A stretch of 32,529 bases of DNA, from IMG/VR virus record IMGVR_UViG_3300032216_001428, positions 1 through 32,529 of that record. One strand, given 5' to 3'. Both the position numbers and the translations under genes were made by a program. This stretch comes from a virus. Its lineage: Duplodnaviria; Caudoviricetes. Of the stretch, positions 1-15,989 are shown piece after piece; positions within the stretch are counted from its first letter, which is position 1; each line of letters opens with the position of its first letter. Below the pieces are notes generated by a model. It searched no databases and was not told where the DNA came from. It saw only the letters and a list, made by a program, of their open reading frames with translations.

Positions 1-123
1 CAACAGAGTTTGTTACAAAGATTACATCTGAACTTGCTAAACTTCCACGAGCACAAGGTGGATTAAATACACTTATAGAAAATGCGCAAGATGCTCTTAC
101 AAAAGCAGCAGGTACAGTAGGTG
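1..123. repeat. Terminal direct repeat (identical to 32407-32529); circular-assembly overlap
   Basis: The first 123 nt (caacagagtt...cagtaggtg) match the last 123 nt, and the tape-measure frame runs uninterrupted across the join. Confidence 0.95.
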
Positions 124-1061
124 CTGGTTTCATTAAACTATTTACTGCTGGTGGTGGAGAAAGTAGTAAGTTCTTTGATATGATACAAGGTGCTGCTGAA
201 CAAATAAATATTGTATTGACAGCATTATCTGAAAGCGAGGCATTCAAGGCTATTCAAAGAAATATAAAAGTTATTATTGATAGTCTTGCTAAAATGGGTC
301 CTTTTTTCAAGGGTGTATTTACTGTTGTTTTAGGACTTATTGTTGGTGTAGTTCAAGAAGTTACTCAAAGAATAGCATTTGTTGCTAACTTTTTAGGGCA
401 GTTATTTTCAAATCCACTAAAAACTATTAAAAATGAGTTTATAGTATTAGGACAACAAATAAAAGCAATATTGAATAATGCTTTGGCTGGCGCATTAGAT
501 GGGTTGAGAAAGTTTGTATCTGGTATTGATAAGTTTGCTGGTACTAACTTTGCTTCTAAAATCCCACAAATGGCAACTATGGATGTACCTGGTCAAACAG
601 CAGGTCAAAAAGCATTAGGTGCTTTATTATCAGGAGCACCAGGATTTGATGCTTTGATGAAAGGTGCCAAAGCAGCGGGAGAAATAGCAGGTCTTGAAAA
701 ACCATTACAAAAACTTCCTTCTGATTTGATGTTTGGTGGAGGTGGTGGTGGCAATCCTGATACTAAAAATGGTAAAGACACAAAAGAAAAAGCAGCAAAA
801 AAAGTTAGCGATAAACAACAAAAAACTCTTGAACTTATTGAAGACCATACAAGAAAAACATCAGAGTTTTCATTAAGAAATGTAACATATGGTGGTGGTT
901 TATTAGCAGCACAAGGCATTTCTAATATGGAAATAAGAGGATTTGGTAGAGTTGGAAGTCCTCAAATATCAGGTTCAAACGATATTGTTAGAGGTATAGA
1001 AAAACTTATTAGAGGATATAACACTAATAATAGTTTAAATATTAATCCAAGGAGAGCATAA
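1..1061 (+). CDS. Tape measure protein, C-terminal part (gene starts at 31806 and wraps; ~553 aa total)
   Basis: Same frame as the ORF starting at 31806. Ala/Gly/Leu-rich helical sequence, located between the tail chaperone and the tail-tip genes. Confidence 0.88.
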   Translation, partial: TEFVTKITSELAKLPRAQGGLNTLIENAQDALTKAAGTVGAGFIKLFTAGGGESSKFFDMIQGAAEQINIVLTALSESEAFKAIQRNIKVIIDSLAKMGPFFKGVFTVVLGLIVGVVQEVTQRIAFVANFLGQLFSNPLKTIKNEFIVLGQQIKAILNNALAGALDGLRKFVSGIDKFAGTNFASKIPQMATMDVPGQTAGQKALGALLSGAPGFDALMKGAKAAGEIAGLEKPLQKLPSDLMFGGGGGGNPDTKNGKDTKEKAAKKVSDKQQKTLELIEDHTRKTSEFSLRNVTYGGGLLAAQGISNMEIRGFGRVGSPQISGSNDIVRGIEKLIRGYNTNNSLNINPRRA

Positions 1062-8436: not shown

Positions 8437-8611
8437 TTTAGTTTGTCTATTATTTTTATTACAAAATCCTTTATATAATCAAACAAAAATAATAAACTTA
8501 CAAAAACCATTAATGATAGAAAAAATAACATTACAAAAACTCGACCCAAGAGATTTAGCACGTTTAACATATATTTTGAATATTGACCAGTTTACAAGAT
8601 TTAAGAGATAA
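8429..8611 (+). CDS. Hypothetical protein with hydrophobic N-terminus (60 aa)
   Basis: Overlaps the previous stop by 8 nt and ends just before a terminator. Confidence 0.5.
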   Translation: MNSLVCLLFLLQNPLYNQTKIINLQKPLMIEKITLQKLDPRDLARLTYILNIDQFTRFKR

Positions 8612-8617
8612 ACACAC

Positions 8618-8651
8618 AAATAACCCACAAGTTTTGCTTGTGGGTTATTTT
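8618..8651. terminator. Bidirectional intrinsic terminator between convergent transcription units
   Basis: Inverted repeat aaataacccacaag / cttgtgggttattt. Confidence 0.8.
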
Positions 8652-8754
8652 CTTTACTGTGTTGCAAAATAAACAAAAATGTTATTTATTTCTTGTAAGT
8701 TTATGTATTGCTCATTTTAATGTACGTCTACTATCCTGTCTGCTTTCCACTTAC
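8618..8754 (-). ncRNA. Candidate small RNA 1 (~140 nt)
   Basis: Extended -10 promoter TGTGGTATAAT upstream, no substantial ORF, GTAAGT...ACTTAC closing stem, and it ends at the 8618-8651 terminator. Confidence 0.5.
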
Positions 8755-8771
8755 AAATATATTATACCACA
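8753..8771 (-). promoter_or_regulatory. Extended -10 promoter (TGTGGTATAATATATTTGT), identical to 15910-15928
   Basis: Perfect TGnTATAAT, with a 19-nt identity to the other small-RNA promoter. Confidence 0.75.
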
Positions 8772-8772
8772 T

Positions 8773-8841
8773 CTATCTATCTTTATCCTTCAACCATTCA
8801 AGATATTTTACTATTAAAGCATCTCCAAGTTTACTTTTCAT
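8773..8841 (-). CDS. Small hypothetical peptide MKSKLGDALIVKYLEWLKDKDR (22 aa)
   Basis: Hand-translated; its start overlaps the end of the upstream small ORF. Not in the ORF track. Confidence 0.35.
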   Translation of the reverse strand: MKSKLGDALIVKYLEWLKDKDR

Positions 8842-9051: not shown

Positions 9052-10498
9052 TTTCTTCCCATAAAACATAGTCTATTCTTGCTTTTGCTATCTCTAAATA
9101 ACTTTCATCCATTTCAATACCAATAAATGAAAATCCTTCTAATATTGCTGCTTTTCCTGTACTTCCACTTCCCATAAACGGGTCAAGAATAATACCTTCT
9201 TTTGGTGTAATGAGCCTACATAAGTATTTCATAAGTTCAGTTGGTTTTACTGTTGGATGATGATTATTATATTTAGTAGAATATTTTTTATCTTCATTAT
9301 TTCTTGGAGCATTTACTCTCATATGATTTTTTTCTTCTAAACTTTCGCAACCTTCATTCCTATCTTTTTTATTAGCCTTCGCACAATAGAAGAAACGAGC
9401 AGCAGAACCACTATCTCCATAACCTTCAAAATCTCCTCTTGTAAAAGGAGTTGAAGTTTCTTTTTCTTCATAATCAGATGCTTTAAAACTACCACTTGAA
9501 CTTTTAGTATTAGGAAATAAACTTACTACATCTTCCGAACCATCGTGGATAATATTTGCTGGCCATCTACCTGTATGTTCTTTATAAGATGATGTATCAG
9601 AACCTCTATTTTCATCTCCACCGGCAAATGTACCTTTCGGAGCATTATGTGTTGAAATAACTTCATTTCCAACTCTACAAGCATCAATATTTACAGCGCC
9701 AGTACCATATTTCAATACATTAGTAGCAACATCTCCTTTAAATGGTTTTCTTGCCATAATAATAGGTTCGTGTGCTGGTTTTAGAGCAGTTCCCCATCCA
9801 TCCCATTGTTTTGCTTCATTTGTAGATGCTTCTGTTATTTCTAAATCAACATATGTAGTTTCAGAACCTAAACCTGGAATAGCATAAGAACTATCAAAGT
9901 TTCTTGCTTTATTTATTACATCAATAACTGGTCTATTAGCAGGAAATGTTTTATCAAAATATTCTTTCATTTCAGGCCAAGCATCTACTATTTTTTGGAA
10001 CTCTTCTGGTTCTGGTATTCTTATTCCTTTTGGTCTTCCTTCATACCAAGAATAGTTTGTTGTTCCATTACAAAACATTTCATCTGCTTGCTTTAATGTA
10101 ATATTTCTTTTAGTTCTTGCTTCTTTTAGTTTTTCAGCAATCTCATTATTCAAAACATTATTCCCACCACGTTTATCAATGGCTTTTCCAATGTTATGAC
10201 TTTTAGGAAAACCTGAACCATAAAGCCACATAATAGTGTCTCTGATTTCAAAACCAGCATCTTCAATATTTACACAAATGCGATGAAAAGTACGAGAACC
10301 ACCAAAAGATAATAAATGTCCACCAGGCTTTAAAACTCTTAAACATTCATTCCATATTTCTACTGAAGGAATATCATAGTCCCATTTCTTATTCATAAAA
10401 GAAATGCCATAAGGAGGGTCAGTAACAATACTATCAACACTATTACTTTCCATTTCTTTCATTTTTTCAAGACAATCTCCAAGAATAAGATTAACCAT
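9041..10498 (-). CDS. Beta-class N6-adenine/N4-cytosine DNA methyltransferase with inserted XRE-type HTH
   Basis: GDCLE, SVDSIVTDPPY (motif IV) at the N-terminus; HPTVKP and ILDPFMGSGST (motif I) at the C-terminus. Start placed at MVNLILGD, overlapping the sigma stop. Confidence 0.93.
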   Translation of the reverse strand: MVNLILGDCLEKMKEMESNSVDSIVTDPPYGISFMNKKWDYDIPSVEIWNECLRVLKPGGHLLSFGGSRTFHRICVNIEDAGFEIRDTIMWLYGSGFPKSHNIGKAIDKRGGNNVLNNEIAEKLKEARTKRNITLKQADEMFCNGTTNYSWYEGRPKGIRIPEPEEFQKIVDAWPEMKEYFDKTFPANRPVIDVINKARNFDSSYAIPGLGSETTYVDLEITEASTNEAKQWDGWGTALKPAHEPIIMARKPFKGDVATNVLKYGTGAVNIDACRVGNEVISTHNAPKGTFAGGDENRGSDTSSYKEHTGRWPANIIHDGSEDVVSLFPNTKSSSGSFKASDYEEKETSTPFTRGDFEGYGDSGSAARFFYCAKANKKDRNEGCESLEEKNHMRVNAPRNNEDKKYSTKYNNHHPTVKPTELMKYLCRLITPKEGIILDPFMGSGSTGKAAILEGFSFIGIEMDESYLEIAKARIDYVLWEENEE

Positions 10499-11270
10499 TC
10501 TTTTCAATAGTCTCCCCATCAAGAAGTCCACTATCTCTAATAACATTTAAAGCTGTATTCAAAATGTCAGTCATTTCTCTAACTGGTTTATTGTATTTTG
10601 CAGCAAGTTGTTCAAGTTCCATCATTGTATCTTCATCGCCTAAACCACAATAATCTTTAATGATTGAAGCTGAAAGTGGGTCCTTATCAAATAAAGCAAT
10701 AACATCATCCATAACACTATCTAAAATAACTCTATCCATATTTTTATCCTCATAAATGTCATTAACATCTTCCAAGCTCATTGTTTGTGTTTTATAACCA
10801 TCAAGAGCAGCTTGTATTCTACTTGGTGGTAAGTTTATTTTATTTATTAGTTCTGTATAATCTAAATCTATTCCTGCTCTCAAAATCTGTATCAATGCTT
10901 CGTGTATATGGTTTGGTAATCTTATTGTTCTACCTGTATTTTCAATAGTTCTTAAACAATATTGCCAAATCCAAGGAGTAGCATAAGTGGATAGTTTTCC
11001 TTTATCAGCATTGTATTTTGTTAAAGCATACAATAATCCCATTTTTGCGCTTTGTAATAAATCTTCTAACTCTACTCCTCTACCTTTGCATTTAATCGCT
11101 ATACTATGAGCAAGATTTCCATACAAATCTAATACTTGTTCCGCTGCTTTTTTATTTTCTCTATCGGAACCATTTTTATATCTATCTGTTAACCATCTAT
11201 CATCTTCAATAGTTGGATTTTTATTCTTTTTTCGACTAATATTATAATCAGTCCAGTTTTGATGTTGCAT
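10491..11270 (-). CDS. Phage-encoded sigma-70 family RNA polymerase sigma factor
   Basis: Region 2 motifs EDLLQ...GLL.A..KY...KG.LSTYAT.WI.Q...R.I....RTIRLP. The start at 11270 has a GGAGG RBS. Confidence 0.9.
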   Translation of the reverse strand: MQHQNWTDYNISRKKNKNPTIEDDRWLTDRYKNGSDRENKKAAEQVLDLYGNLAHSIAIKCKGRGVELEDLLQSAKMGLLYALTKYNADKGKLSTYATPWIWQYCLRTIENTGRTIRLPNHIHEALIQILRAGIDLDYTELINKINLPPSRIQAALDGYKTQTMSLEDVNDIYEDKNMDRVILDSVMDDVIALFDKDPLSASIIKDYCGLGDEDTMMELEQLAAKYNKPVREMTDILNTALNVIRDSGLLDGETIEKNG

Positions 11271-11322: not shown

Positions 11323-11532
11323 TTATCCTGCTTTTCTTTCTTTGTACTTATCTAATAAATATTCTGAAACAACTGAAATAGGAAGATTACAAGCATCAGA
11401 AATCTTTTTAATATTCATAAGGGTTGGCATACTTTTTCCTGATAAATATTTGCTTATATGAGATTGATGTAAACCACTTCTATTTGCAATCTCTAACTGT
11501 GTAAATCCAAAAGTCATATTACTTGCTGGCAT
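11323..11532 (-). CDS. XRE/Cro-family helix-turn-helix transcriptional regulator (69 aa)
   Basis: TQLEIANRSGLHQSHISKYLSGKSMP...IKKISDA is a canonical HTH_3 pattern. Confidence 0.88.
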   Translation of the reverse strand: MPASNMTFGFTQLEIANRSGLHQSHISKYLSGKSMPTLMNIKKISDACNLPISVVSEYLLDKYKERKAG

Positions 11533-12224: not shown

Positions 12225-13199
12225 TTATTTGCTCATTTTTAATAAATCTTGTAATGACATTCTATCAAGTCTTTTTTTAACTGTATTTTTTAGTAAATCA
12301 AGTTTAGTGCTAATAGTTGTTAATGATACTAAACCAGGATTTCCATTTTTATTATCAATGTAGTAGTAGCCATCTCTTTTTCTTAATGGAGCTAACATAA
12401 TATTCTTTCCTGATTTTTCAATAGTCCAATAAGGGTTGTTTTGTAATACTAATATATTTCCATTTTTGTTAGGATAAAAGACAGCCTTTACATAATCCTT
12501 TTGAGCATCAGTAAGAAGGGATAAATCAAGCTTATCAATATAATATAAGTTTTTACGAAGGGGTTCTCTCCATACTAAATCTGCTAATGCTAAAATGATA
12601 CTGTTAATATCTACCTTGCCATCTTTTACTACAAGTTTATGATTTGGTAAGAATACTGGCTTTTCTTTTTTAATCTTAACAACAGGAACTTCTACTTCTT
12701 CTTTTTTAGGCTCAATAACCTCTATTTTAGGAGTTTCTATATGTAATGTGGGTTTTGATATGTTTTTAGGTTTTTGATAGTATTTTATAGCATTTTTGAC
12801 TATATTTTGTTCTATCCAACTTTCAAGAATAAATCTTCCTTTTTGTTCATTTTTAACCCAATCATCAGTAGACCAATATAACCATTCATCTTTAAAGTTT
12901 TGATTGAACCAAATAAAGGAATGTTTGAATGTATAGTGGTTTTTGCTAATGAAGTCATAAGCATCATTAATACCTTCTATATGACGAAAATCTTTTGCTT
13001 CTATTCTATTATGTTCAAAATATTGAGTTCTTATTCTTAATGCTATTGCGCTTTCAAAAGTAAAGTAAGCAGCTTTTTGATTTTTCTTTTTAGATGGTCT
13101 ATTCCAATCAGACATCATCTGATTGTAATGATTTCTTTGCTGCTCTGCATAATAATCATTTTCAATGTCATCTAACTGGTAATCATCTTCAAAATACAT
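12225..13199 (-). CDS. Hypothetical protein; positional candidate for replication initiator
   Basis: Long ORF with probable start MYFEDD after GAGG. It lies next to iteron-like repeats, but I recognised no family motif. Confidence 0.55.
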   Translation of the reverse strand: MYFEDDYQLDDIENDYYAEQQRNHYNQMMSDWNRPSKKKNQKAAYFTFESAIALRIRTQYFEHNRIEAKDFRHIEGINDAYDFISKNHYTFKHSFIWFNQNFKDEWLYWSTDDWVKNEQKGRFILESWIEQNIVKNAIKYYQKPKNISKPTLHIETPKIEVIEPKKEEVEVPVVKIKKEKPVFLPNHKLVVKDGKVDINSIILALADLVWREPLRKNLYYIDKLDLSLLTDAQKDYVKAVFYPNKNGNILVLQNNPYWTIEKSGKNIMLAPLRKRDGYYYIDNKNGNPGLVSLTTISTKLDLLKNTVKKRLDRMSLQDLLKMSK

Positions 13200-13220
13200 T
13201 TCATTTTCCTCTTGTTGTTC

Positions 13221-13249
13221 ATTATACCTATTATTTCTTTTTAGTGCAA
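13221..13249 (-). promoter_or_regulatory. Sigma-70 promoter TTGCAC-17-TATAAT for the leftward early operon
   Basis: -35 at 13244-13249 and -10 at 13221-13226 with a 17-nt spacer. Confidence 0.65.
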
Positions 13250-13344
13250 ACATTTTCTTCTATTTTCAAGATTTTGTTGAATAACCAAAATAATCTAACT
13301 TCATTGATAATAACTAAAATAATAACCGCATTTGTAATATCCAT
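13231..13344 (-). CDS. Small hydrophobic protein MDITNAVIILVIINEVRLFWLFNKILKIEENVCTKKK (37 aa)
   Basis: Hand-translated; strong GGAGG RBS upstream. Confidence 0.55.
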   Translation of the reverse strand: MDITNAVIILVIINEVRLFWLFNKILKIEENVCTKKK

Positions 13345-13570: not shown

Positions 13571-13668
13571 GGATACATCTATAAGAAGTATCCAAAAAAG
13601 TAAAAGATGTATCCAAATAAATAGGTAGATGTATCCAAATAAATAGGTAGATGTACACTTTTGTATCC
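13571..13668. repeat. Iteron-like array (AGATGTATCC core), putative replication origin
   Basis: Direct copies at 13584, 13605, 13627 and 13649 (21-22 bp period), an inverted copy at 13571 and a partial copy at 13661. Flanked by AT-rich TAGTTATTT repeats (13505-13530). Confidence 0.7.
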
Positions 13669-13747
13669 TTCTTTATTTAACCTAAAAAAGCCAGATTTCC
13701 ACATTCAAAAAGTTCGTACAAGTGTATGATACTATTTAAAGTTGATA

Positions 13748-13794
13748 GATTTAGTCAACATTATTATGTATAGTATTCCTACTGATTTAGTCAA
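13748..13794. promoter_or_regulatory. Two GATTTAGTCAA direct repeats; candidate operators or tandem leftward -35 boxes (TTGACT)
   Basis: Exact 11-mers at 13748-13758 and 13784-13794. Confidence 0.45.
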
Positions 13795-13818
13795 TATAAG
13801 AGTTTAAGTTTTTTCTCA

Positions 13819-13827
13819 TTATACCAT
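13819..13827 (-). promoter_or_regulatory. Leftward extended -10 promoter (TGGTATAAT)
   Basis: attatacca on the + strand; divergent from the 13906 promoter. Confidence 0.5.
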
Positions 13828-13905
13828 TACACGCACTACTATGCTATGTATTATCTTACGAGATTTAAATACTAACAATCGTAGAATAATGAAAAAGAAG
13901 GTGTG

Positions 13906-13933
13906 TTGACATTTAGTGCGGAATGTGTATAAT
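13906..13933 (+). promoter_or_regulatory. Consensus sigma-70 promoter TTGACA-16-TATAAT
   Basis: Perfect -35 (13906-13911) and -10 (13928-13933) with an A-rich UP-like tract upstream. Confidence 0.85.
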
Positions 13934-13939
13934 AGATGT

Positions 13940-14287
13940 AGATGATTACACGGAAGGCAACCAAGAAGTAAGGGCTGACATACTCGCAAGGGTCGAATGG
14001 AAACTTACAGACTAACTACCGCATCTACCGCACTTTACTAAACATAGCAATAGGGAAGGTCCTGATAGCAGGGCTCCACTCAAACCCCAACTGACGTTGG
14101 CAACCTGAACACCGATGAGTTCCAAAGTAGGGTTGTAAGTCCAGTAGAACTGGTGGGTTAGGAATGGAAGAGAAGCAGTATAGACCAACCACCGCACCCG
14201 AAGCGAAGGTGCTCTTGCGCATCATAAGGAAGAAAATACAAATATAAAAAAATTGTGGGTGTAGGAACCCGCAAGGAGAAATGTCAG
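13940..14287 (+). ncRNA. Long structured 5' leader / candidate ncRNA (~345 nt) upstream of the SprT-like gene
   Basis: GC-enriched with no long sense ORF. Several hairpins plus a long-range helix (14003-14019 with 14127-14140). Confidence 0.55.
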
Positions 14288-14995
14288 ATGGCACGATATA
14301 CGAATGATGAAGGTTGGGATAACCACGTTTGGGTAAACCAAGAAGAGTTCTTGGAAAGAGCAACCAAAGAGTGGCATCTCATCAATGACCGATACTATGG
14401 TGGTAAGTTAGACATCAATAAGACAATGAGTGCGGATGCGCTCAAAGACTTTATGTGGAAAGCGTACACCTATTGTATGGAAACATACTATGACCACGGC
14501 AAGGATTGTAAGCACCCGTTGCGACACGATGGGGACCTTTCTATTACCAAGTACAAGACATCGTATGCTGGATTATGTAGAAGCTGGGGAAAGGGAGAAG
14601 GTGCAACGCACTTCATCATCATCTCTTACCGCTACTATCAGGATTGGGGTAATGCCCACATTCTTGAAACGCTCTACCACGAGATTGGGCATCTTTCCCA
14701 TTGGAACCACGATGATGATTTTTGGCAAGAAGGAGAGCGTATCGGGTATGGACTGGCACCTATGGGTGTTAAACCGAGACCAGCAAAGTTCCGTCAGTAC
14801 TGTGGTCAACCTGGTTGCGATTGGGAGCGCTTCTATAAAACTCGTCCAAACAAGTATGTAATCTGTCCTTACTGCTTCCCATTATATGATGGCGCACCGG
14901 AACCAAACTATGACACTTGGTTAGCGCTTCCGTCAGAAGAGAAGGTATGGACAATCATTGAGAAGTACACGGGACCTGAATACCTTATCTACTAA
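14288..14995 (+). CDS. SprT-like zinc metalloprotease with C-terminal zinc ribbon
   Basis: ETLYHEIGH (HExxH), downstream H and F (NHDDDFW), and Cys pairs YCGQPGC and ICPYC. AAGGAG RBS 9 nt before ATG 14288. Confidence 0.85.
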   Translation: MARYTNDEGWDNHVWVNQEEFLERATKEWHLINDRYYGGKLDINKTMSADALKDFMWKAYTYCMETYYDHGKDCKHPLRHDGDLSITKYKTSYAGLCRSWGKGEGATHFIIISYRYYQDWGNAHILETLYHEIGHLSHWNHDDDFWQEGERIGYGLAPMGVKPRPAKFRQYCGQPGCDWERFYKTRPNKYVICPYCFPLYDGAPEPNYDTWLALPSEEKVWTIIEKYTGPEYLIY

Positions 14996-14998
14996 ACT

Positions 14999-15032
14999 AA
15001 AAGCCCCGCATCAAAAGGTGCGGGGCTTTTTT
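14999..15032 (+). terminator. Intrinsic terminator after the SprT-like gene
   Basis: aaaagccccgcatc-aaaa-ggtgcggggctttt followed by more T. Confidence 0.92.
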
Positions 15033-15061
15033 ATTGCAAATTTTGAATGGTAAAATCCTAT

Positions 15062-15433
15062 ATGAAAAAAGAAGCAGAAATCCATATAGAGATTATGGAT
15101 TGGGTGCGGGCTAATGAAGAAGATTTTGATGCTTTAAAATGTATTTATCATCCACCTAACTCTTTCTTTGGCGTAGGATTTGGAATAGTTAAATGGCTTC
15201 AAAAACTTGGTATGCGGAGTGGAGTTTGGGATATTATTGTGCCGATTGATAATAATATCTATTCAGCACTCTACATTGAAGTTAAATCAGAGAAAGGTAA
15301 ACTATCAAAGCAACAACAAGAATGGAAAGAAGTTATTATGAAAAACACTGCTAAATGGCCCTTATTTGTTGAAGTAAAAGATGCAAACACTGGAATAGAA
15401 CTAATAAGTAAATATCTTGGTATGAGCGAATGA
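15062..15433 (+). CDS. VRR-NUC domain nuclease (possible Holliday-junction resolvase)
   Basis: E..I...I, GVWD, LYIEVKSEKGKLSKQQ.EW motifs of VRR-NUC. Start placed at the second Met. Confidence 0.85.
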   Translation: MKKEAEIHIEIMDWVRANEEDFDALKCIYHPPNSFFGVGFGIVKWLQKLGMRSGVWDIIVPIDNNIYSALYIEVKSEKGKLSKQQQEWKEVIMKNTAKWPLFVEVKDANTGIELISKYLGMSE

Positions 15434-15675
15434 AACATAGCATTGAAATAGAAAAACTTGATGAGATTTATGATAGCGGTTCTCTACAAGTTTATTCAGG
15501 TTTTGTTTTTGGCGTAAAGATGATTATTGTTAAGAGTAAACTAATCGTAGGATATATCAGTAGAGAAGACTGGGATAAACACGGATACAAGTTTAAAGGT
15601 AAAAAAATAAATAAAATAGAAGAAGGTAACTATTGCTATTTTAGAGAAGAGAATGATAGACTGTATTTAGTATAA
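15430..15675 (+). CDS. Hypothetical protein (81 aa)
   Basis: ATGA overlap with the VRR-NUC gene. Confidence 0.65.
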   Translation: MKHSIEIEKLDEIYDSGSLQVYSGFVFGVKMIIVKSKLIVGYISREDWDKHGYKFKGKKINKIEEGNYCYFREENDRLYLV

Positions 15676-15685
15676 GGAAAACATT

Positions 15686-15907
15686 ATGGAAGAACAAGAA
15701 GACAATAGACCACTCAAAGGGTTGTATCCAATGCTTAAAATCAATATTGCTGCAAAAACAGAAGAACACGAAATGGCAACAATCCAAGAACTTATGGAAG
15801 CTTTTGATTTACCAGAAAGTCCTGTTGAGTTTATTAAAAAGTTATTAGATGCTGGTTATGCAAATATTTATTTACATAGCTGGGATGAGAGTTTAAAGTT
15901 AATGTAA
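15686..15907 (+). CDS. Hypothetical protein (73 aa)
   Basis: AAGGA RBS; packed within the operon. Confidence 0.65.
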   Translation: MEEQEDNRPLKGLYPMLKINIAAKTEEHEMATIQELMEAFDLPESPVEFIKKLLDAGYANIYLHSWDESLKLM

Positions 15908-15909
15908 TG

Positions 15910-15928
15910 TGTGGTATAATATATTTGT
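15910..15928 (+). promoter_or_regulatory. Extended -10 promoter (TGTGGTATAATATATTTGT)
   Basis: Identical to the reverse-strand copy at 8753-8771. Confidence 0.75.
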
Positions 15929-15989
15929 TAGTTCATTGACATTTCTAACTCCTTGTAAGCCCCAGCCTCCTACTGGGGCTCTTTTTTTT
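15927..15989 (+). ncRNA. Candidate trans-acting antisense small RNA 2 (~63 nt) complementary to the SprT-like gene RBS/start
   Basis: Own promoter and terminator. 15934-15956 is complementary to 14271-14290, and the terminator loop carries an anti-SD CCUCCU. Confidence 0.65.
15958..15989 (+). terminator. Intrinsic terminator
   Basis: agccccag-cctccta-ctggggct followed by C and T8. Confidence 0.9.

Follow-up and report, generated by a model that had tools for sequence, protein, structure and literature searches.

The 32,529-nt stretch analysed here (IMG/VR record IMGVR_UViG_3300032216_001428, positions 1 to 32,529; the whole of it is referred to as the window) represents the complete genome of a 32.5-kb phage, with direct repeats at its termini. 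It raises the question of what purpose is served by a short transcription unit located beside the terminase gene. The original prediction had read this unit as a trans-encoded small RNA (sRNA) dedicated to silencing a gene for an SprT metalloprotease by pairing with its Shine-Dalgarno (SD) sequence and start codon. As detailed below, the sRNA gene is a real conserved feature, and its complementarity extends above chance to the start regions of several mRNAs transcribed from sigma70-type promoters. The RNA may therefore have several targets, of which SprT would be one. The sRNA gene comprises the following elements:

15927 to 15989, plus strand: candidate 63-nt sRNA, encoded once in the genome, with a 5' end deduced from its promoter.
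15910 to 15920, plus strand: extended -10 promoter TGTGGTATAAT of the sRNA, without a consensus -35 element; invariant in 9/9 aligned sequences.
15931 to 15945, plus strand: sRNA seed of 15 nt with two anti-AUG (CAU) triplets, complementary to GAAAUG-N-AUG; invariant in the alignment.
15947 to 15953, plus strand: first anti-SD motif of the sRNA, AACUCCU; invariant in the alignment.
15958 to 15989, plus strand: intrinsic terminator of the sRNA (stem 15958 to 15980, followed by a U-run), from a terminator scan.

Nine viral contigs related to the window were recovered with the small terminase subunit; a tenth, more distant one (L034) encodes a terminase subunit 62% identical to that of the window. 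All nine contigs harbour the sRNA unit, i.e. promoter, invariant seed, anti-SD motif and terminator, at the corresponding place (nine of ten if L034 is counted), and the unit stays beside the terminase gene although the SprT cassette is inverted in three of five relatives. In an alignment of the window with eight relatives (L017, which is identical to L016 in this region, was omitted) no change is seen in the promoter TGTGGTATAAT, the seed GUUCAUUGACAUUUC or AACUCCU, in contrast to the variable spacers and terminator stem; 22 transcribed positions are invariant next to variable neighbouring ones. The terminator loop (15966 to 15972) exposes a second anti-SD motif which reads CCUCCUA in the window and UUCUCC, the exact complement of GGAGAA, in all eight relatives examined. 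The unit contains no conserved open reading frame (ORF) but has its own promoter, an intrinsic terminator and a conserved single-stranded seed. In this respect, the original prediction of a trans-encoded sRNA gene is borne out. It had further placed the seed in the loop of a GUUAG/CUAAC stem. This stem is indeed present in the minimum free energy fold, but the centroid fold differs and the 3' arm of the stem varies among the relatives. A consensus structure calculated from the alignment by RNAalifold turned out to be a fold of the promoter region and was discarded. Among viral sequences, the exact seed pattern of the window gave no match and a relaxed pattern gave four. L034 possesses a promoter-RNA-terminator unit at the corresponding place (861 to 956) which contains UUCC motifs and is otherwise different in sequence; a model of the sRNA family did not match it. 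GGAA-type sequences are observed upstream of three genes of L034, which hints at covariation between anti-SD motif and start site.

The start region of the SprT gene, at which the sRNA had been proposed to act, is made up as follows:

14271 to 14290, plus strand: predicted target of the sRNA, the SprT ribosome-binding site, in which a GGAGAA tag and an AUG out of frame precede the start codon (sequence, RNAduplex).
14253 to 14274, plus strand: predicted hairpin directly 5' of the SprT SD sequence; a hairpin of different sequence is present at the equivalent place in all six leaders.

The pairing over the SD sequence and the start codon is present in the sequence as described. The region consists of GCAAGGAG (14271 to 14278), AAATGTCA (14279 to 14286), G 14287 and the ATG (14288 to 14290), and RNAduplex calculates an energy of -22.4 kcal/mol for its interaction with the sRNA. 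As had been predicted, this site ranks first among 34 start regions of the window, but the margin is slight (-22.2 kcal/mol for the runner-up), and RNAs whose seed was shuffled while the anti-SD motif was kept attain the best-of-34 energy in 32 of 300 trials. In addition, a shuffled seed gives an exact complement of at least 9 nt to some start region of the window in 73 of 2000 trials. Owing to the frequency with which shuffled sequences match it, the pairing within this single genome is modestly above chance and suggestive only. Since the target bases GCAA lie within the hairpin 14253 to 14274, only GGAGAAA of the SprT target is predicted to be open. The out-of-frame AUG, two bases past the SD sequence, starts an ORF of eight codons (14281 to 14307). 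It may be the remnant of an older SprT start because the SprT homologs P0001 to P0006 begin with Met-Ser.

The window phage and its relatives contain, as a variable set, units behind sigma70-consensus promoters, which we infer to be early genes. Twenty such units, six SprT and fourteen non-SprT, were curated by hand in place of automatic gene calls, in which two SprT starts were wrongly placed and several early units overlooked. The set leaves out three duplicates whose start regions are identical, promoter hits situated inside genes or lacking an ORF, and one truncated leader; one unit whose ORF ends after six codons was retained. The SprT sites (n = 6) pair with the sRNA at a mean of -16.6 kcal/mol versus -11.8 kcal/mol with shuffled seeds (2/400 shuffles), so that complementarity is retained across all six start sites, and the non-SprT sites (n = 14) at -14.4 versus -10.7 kcal/mol (0/400). 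With one unit per gene family (n = 8) the respective value is 2/400, or 4/400 or 11/400 if one CAU is held fixed. In contrast, the remaining 32 genes of the window show no pairing excess (54/150). The start regions themselves differ correspondingly: GGAGAA occurs in 17 of the 20 sigma70 units versus 1 of the 32 other genes, and an extra AAUG 2 to 4 nt before the start codon (AAUG-N2-4-AUG) in 10/20 versus 1/32, whereas GAGG-type sites are found in 10/32 other genes versus 2/20 sigma70 units (p = 0.1). In the complete relative G005, GGAGAA is present in all five sigma70 units versus 1 of 29 other genes, and the pairing energies are attained by 2/500 shuffles for the former versus 48/150 for the latter. 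At the level of the class, complementarity of the sRNA to several mRNAs is above chance. The window itself contains, besides SprT, one further unit of this kind:

12225 to 13250, minus strand: second sigma70-type unit with promoter (13250 to 13221), a short leader containing GAGGAAAAUGAAAUG and a 324-aa gene outside Pfam; second predicted target.

Its pairing energy of -14.6 kcal/mol is attained by 1 of 500 shuffles. The 324-aa gene of L016 is 29% identical to that of the window, the flanking genes being 85-95% identical.

GGAGAA is missing from the SprT sites of L020 and L023, but these sites contain GUCAAUGA, which is complementary to the seed without mismatch over 8 nt, in a second register covering the AUG; of all SprT sites, these two form the weakest duplexes (-12.2 and -13.7 kcal/mol, respectively). 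In L020, a non-SprT early site outdoes that of SprT (-19.8 and -18.5 versus -12.2 kcal/mol). The best-matching start site of this contig (-19.8 kcal/mol) precedes a homolog-like early gene which ends after six codons (120 to 150, minus strand), being either affected by a sequencing error or a pseudogene. The compensatory changes expected in related phages were not found: on the RNA side there is no covariation, the seed being invariant although the identity of the SprT proteins drops to 38-52% and their start regions differ, and because of this invariance two-sided covariation is absent. Judged from the sequences, a fixed seed with shifting targets would fit an RNA with multiple targets, and it would fit host targets equally well.

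The SprT gene is the last part of a unit with an extended leader:

13906 to 13933, plus strand: sigma70-type promoter of the leader-SprT unit, TTGACA-16-TATAAT (12/12 consensus; same promoter type in the relatives).
13939 to 14287, plus strand: structured leader RNA of about 350 nt, outside Rfam, with a conserved core at 14042 to 14192 (comparative).
14288 to 14995, plus strand: SprT/SPRTN-like zinc metalloprotease candidate, 235 aa, with HEIGH and four C-terminal cysteines (motif, profile, model).
15002 to 15033, plus strand: terminator-like hairpin and U-run closing the SprT unit, read from the sequence; absent from the terminator scan list.

HEI[GA]H and the four C-terminal cysteines are invariant in 13/13 SprT sequences. 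The structure model (predicted local distance difference test, pLDDT, 86.5) adopts a zincin fold; among solved structures, the protease domain of human SPRTN matches it best (prob 0.96, E 6.8e-3; none at E ≤ 0.001). IrrE appears at rank 35 of this search (prob 0.04), and the IrrE-type Pfam family gave no match in a scan of the window ORFs. While motif, model and top match are in line with the predicted SprT metalloprotease, the Pfam scores for SprT-like (PF10263), WLM and YgjP all remain below cut-off (15.3 versus 25.6 bits for SprT-like). Atlas SprT clusters were matched at 0.93, and a profile search yielded 3 clusters at E ≤ 1e-30 and 60 at E ≤ 0.001; the SprT-like Pfam cut-off is passed by 6 of 12 relatives scanned from this search. 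The modelled fold suggests a distant SprT/WLM-type HExxH protein, a candidate protease belonging to a narrow, distant clade. Against GenBank phages and plasmids the SprT protein gave no match, relatives at about 30% identity being located at three metagenome loci, and PADLOC gave no match for 13 proteins. By analogy to SPRTN, one might guess that it removes proteins bound or crosslinked to phage DNA. All five contigs bearing the SprT gene have the sRNA. Among the records analysed no complete relative with the sRNA and without SprT was found, the four SprT-negative records being fragments (14-84% complete); G004 stops at the lysis genes and does not reach the early region. Compared to the window, L016, L020 and L023 show inversion or rearrangement of the leader-SprT cassette together with the early units next to it.

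The leader lies inside what the original prediction had termed a GC-rich cassette and was not described there. It measures 290-324 nt in five relatives, and its core of 150 nt is 73-88% identical to that of the window, versus 61-65% for the coding sequences. In a five-helix model 95.7% of cells are paired and five pairs are changed on both sides (0-1/500 shuffles). As the helices were chosen from the same six sequences which served to score them, this covariation only leans in favour of the model. The whole leader of the window, folded alone, is no better than shuffles (z 0.16); support for the structure is comparative. The core pattern matches five viral contigs, which are exactly the five with SprT. 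A covariance model searched over 13 sequence sources found no copies beyond its own members, and none was found in the three metagenome SprT loci of about 30% identity. Likeness to a riboswitch, a T-box, a group I intron or a hammerhead was rejected because two leaders gave no sense-strand match to Rfam at E ≤ 10. Two RNA candidates which precede SprT genes according to the accessible part of PMC10690425 (67 and 40 nt) can be set beside the leader by length only. In the simplest reading, the leader most likely acts in cis to control SprT translation; it is a candidate for a new class of structured RNA and was observed solely in front of the SprT gene. L019 (6224 to 6285) and likewise L016, L018, L021 and L023 carry an extra short promoter-driven unit without ORF immediately 5' of the leader promoter. 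In L023, this unit is similar to the hairpins at the 5' end of the leader; the window has instead a longer 5' domain within the leader.

When the sRNA might be made, and on whom it might act, is to be judged from its genomic surroundings, for which two further genes are relevant:

10491 to 11270, minus strand: phage sigma-70-type factor (Pfam scan), candidate reader of the late motif YGNTAAAAT.
11323 to 11532, minus strand: XRE helix-turn-helix protein, 69 aa (Pfam scan), a lone helix-turn-helix protein in an operon other than that of SprT.

YGNTAAAAT, a candidate promoter for the phage sigma factor, precedes the genes at 15048, 15997, 17726, 22939 and 26789; YGVTAAAAT has 10 matches versus 4.6 expected (2/100 shuffles). 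Because its promoter differs by one base from the motif copy at 15048, the sRNA could be late, or else it could accumulate from the start as a delayed feedback. The VRR-NUC gene appears leaderless, its ATG following TAAAAT by five bases (15048 to 15064), as is also the case in the relatives. Besides the sigma factor and the XRE protein, the genes of the window include those for terminase, portal, prohead protease, capsid and a methylase. No integrase or partition family was detected among the window ORFs scanned with Pfam, a divergent system outside Pfam being possible. Terminase, capsid, portal, sigma factor, endolysin and two tail proteins gave distant matches or none against GenBank phages. 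Capsid and SprT alignments gave no confirmed match to GTDB genomes. For the endolysin the Atlas taxa are viral only, and its GenBank matches are just two, both labelled as Microcystis phages (33%, E 4e-6).

Taken together, we lean, by a modest measure, towards the view that this conserved sRNA gene, complementary to the start regions of sigma70-promoter units, blocks translation of that probably early set, SprT being among several targets. The RNA would be produced, either by the host polymerase at the extended -10 promoter or by means of the phage sigma factor, and accumulate. CUCCU or the terminator loop would then nucleate on GGAGAA, whereupon the seed would extend over the spacer and the AUG and prevent initiation. 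Other genes might escape through GAGG-type sites or leaderless starts such as that at 15062. The outcome would be an RNA-based end of early protein synthesis, comparable to that brought about by T4 RegB but achieved through pairing. The SprT mRNA might be subject to additional control by its conserved folded leader. A more far-reaching version, which is conceivable but in our opinion doubtful, would be an RNA-run switch from early to late: all early mRNAs would bear a GGAGAA...AUG barcode, to be read by a late or accumulating sRNA. A further RNA layer would precede the SPRTN-like protease, namely a novel class of structured RNA, 150-350 nt in length, which would always travel with the protease and might be a riboswitch-like sensor or a protease scaffold.

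Several observations weigh against regulation of the early set by the sRNA. Many of the single duplexes are weak (-11 to -13 kcal/mol), and two non-early genes of the window attain cofold energies (-13.4 and -12.4 kcal/mol) in the range of those of early genes. We delimited the class by hand once the pattern had been seen, its units are related, and sites of the five early units of G005 recur in the set of 20. The SD sequences of early sites are stronger (p = 0.002), and strong A-rich start sites are to be expected on highly expressed genes anyway. The window has only two such units, one of which is without GGAGAA, and its own terminator loop reads CCUCCUA. The invariance of the seed is equally what host targets would cause. 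In addition, L034 has a different RNA at the place of the sRNA.

Among the alternatives, a mainly host-directed role has to be considered, in which the sRNA might mimic PsrR1, a regulator of photosynthesis in cyanobacteria, or block strong AGGAG start sites in general, its fit to the early sites of the phage being secondary. We regard it as unlikely, but it keeps some weight because no other Rfam family scores as high over the sRNA as PsrR1 does (24 bits, E 0.25; 23 bits, E 0.01 in a second scan) and because of the Microcystis phage labels of the endolysin matches. The two RNAs have CAUUGACAUU, CUCCU and a terminator at equal spacing, the invariant seed is compatible with constraint by host targets and, as far as the accessible part of PMC6596454 goes, PsrR1 homologs exist in Microcystis and repress several mRNAs. 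The scores are, however, far under the gathering cut-off of 42, of 14 unrelated genomes used as controls, 7 are likewise matched by the model at E ≤ 1, host searches with phage proteins gave no host assignment, and L034 is without a PsrR1-like seed. A canonical SD sequence continues as GGAGG; the loop motif UUCUCC fits the GGAGAA tag of the phage. Host targets would, moreover, leave unexplained why only sigma70-promoter phage genes carry the complement. The assumption of a real but non-regulatory or DNA-level element, i.e. an insulating promoter-terminator before the terminase operon whose complementarity merely reflects generic strong A-rich start sites, seems very improbable. While the weak single-genome statistics (32/300), the fact that the terminator would also terminate the upstream VRR-NUC operon and the presence of TTGACA, a -35 hexamer, within the seed are in its favour, it is at odds with 22 invariant transcribed positions beside variable neighbours, with the failure of composition-matched shuffles to reproduce the class signal, with the second anti-SD motif retained in the terminator loop and with the unit containing UUCC motifs at the equivalent place of L034.

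A dedicated antisense RNA for SprT, be it a type I-like antitoxin or the gate of a protease antirepressor cleaving the XRE protein, is what had originally been envisaged, and we hold it to be improbable. SprT does provide the top pairing site of the window and the strongest mean duplexes, the sRNA is present in all five contigs with the SprT gene, and a trans-encoded antitoxin of an enzyme toxin is known from a prophage (RalA/RalR, according to the accessible part of PMC4041452). Yet the seed shows no compensatory change over the range of SprT divergence given above, fourteen unrelated early-type sites pair just as non-randomly (0/400), one of them beating SprT in L020, and inversion of the SprT cassette in three of five relatives leaves the sRNA by the terminase gene. 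The mRNAs of type I toxins often have long structured leaders, and that of SprT has one as well. None of the 13 proteins matched PADLOC. An antirepressor switch is unlikely because no integrase was found in the complete genome, Pfam scans revealing no partition gene either, and because the SprT fold matches SPRTN and not IrrE. As to the XRE protein, proposed as the protease substrate, nothing links this lone helix-turn-helix protein of another operon to SprT.

Some additional elements of these genomes were noted. Iteron-like direct repeats are located at about 13600 to 13660 (within 13580 to 13830), as are repeats of a TTTAGTCAAC-type motif read from a minus-strand promoter at about 13825; the repeats at 13580 to 13830, which are conserved in the relatives, are possibly a replication origin. 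A second candidate non-coding RNA of about 150 nt is located at 8605 to 8775 on the minus strand behind a TGTGGTATAATATATTTGT promoter signature, as for the sRNA. It converges on the lysis genes and ends in a shared hairpin; it is 84-92% conserved in L001 and L002, while L003 retains its 3' part only. An ORF inserted near the VRR-NUC gene or just 5' of the RNA unit (L022, 1113 to 1575; L034, 322 to 816) resembles, judged by eye, an HNH homing endonuclease.

If regulation of the early set through the sRNA is true, reading of a shared start-site barcode by an sRNA would constitute an RNA route to the class-wide shut-off of early mRNAs, so far known from a protein nuclease (T4 RegB), and could be put to use as a compact multi-gene silencer. 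The leader would represent a separate candidate for a new class of structured RNA, one linked to an SPRTN-like protease of a bacterial virus. A literature search covering few subscription papers retrieved no report of a phage anti-SD sRNA acting on early genes. P1/P7 c4 and P4 CI are phage antisense RNAs directed against the phage's own genes, and P22 Sar, 24B_1, lambda OOP and aQ likewise pair with genes of their own phage, as is predicted here. These RNAs, however, act on one or two lysogeny regulators in temperate phages, and known phage antisense RNAs are single-target or host-directed, as far as the accessible part of the source goes (PMC12197685). In contrast, the present sRNA matches a class of unrelated genes in a genome in which no integrase was found, and it has no Rfam match to known phage antisense RNAs. 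With RalA/RalR it would share a trans-encoded sRNA from a phage region with short complementarity to an enzyme mRNA; there, a single target of shown toxicity is described in the accessible portion of the source (PMC4041452), while many targets are predicted here. In PsrR1 (RF02701), CAUUGACAUU, CUCCU and a terminator follow one another as they do in the sRNA, and repression of several targets at their ribosome-binding sites is reported for PsrR1 itself (PMC6596454, accessible part). The sRNA, however, reaches 23-24 bits versus a cut-off of 42, is without the 5' part and is phage-encoded.

The SPRTN/SprT-like proteases of cluster AZ Arthrobacter phages resemble the present one in their HExxH domain and in a sigma-like gene nearby, going by the accessible part of 10.1101/2025.05.26.655371; the candidate protease described here differs in that it appears to belong to a narrow, distant clade and is encoded behind a conserved structured leader. 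In cluster K mycobacteriophages an extended motif at the start of a subset of genes has been proposed as a binding site for RNA or protein (PMC3203893). These start-associated sequences are of another motif and other phages, and the accessible part of the source names no cognate RNA, while here a complementary RNA gene is present. The closest functional analogue of the sRNA would be T4 RegB. According to the accessible part of PMC3014915, T4 early mRNAs are marked with GG*AGRAYARAA for inactivation by RegB, i.e. their ribosome-binding sites carry GGAG and an A-rich sequence as a tag, and the whole class is shut down post-transcriptionally. RegB, however, is a protein nuclease needing S1, whereas the reader proposed here would be a base-pairing RNA without homology to it.

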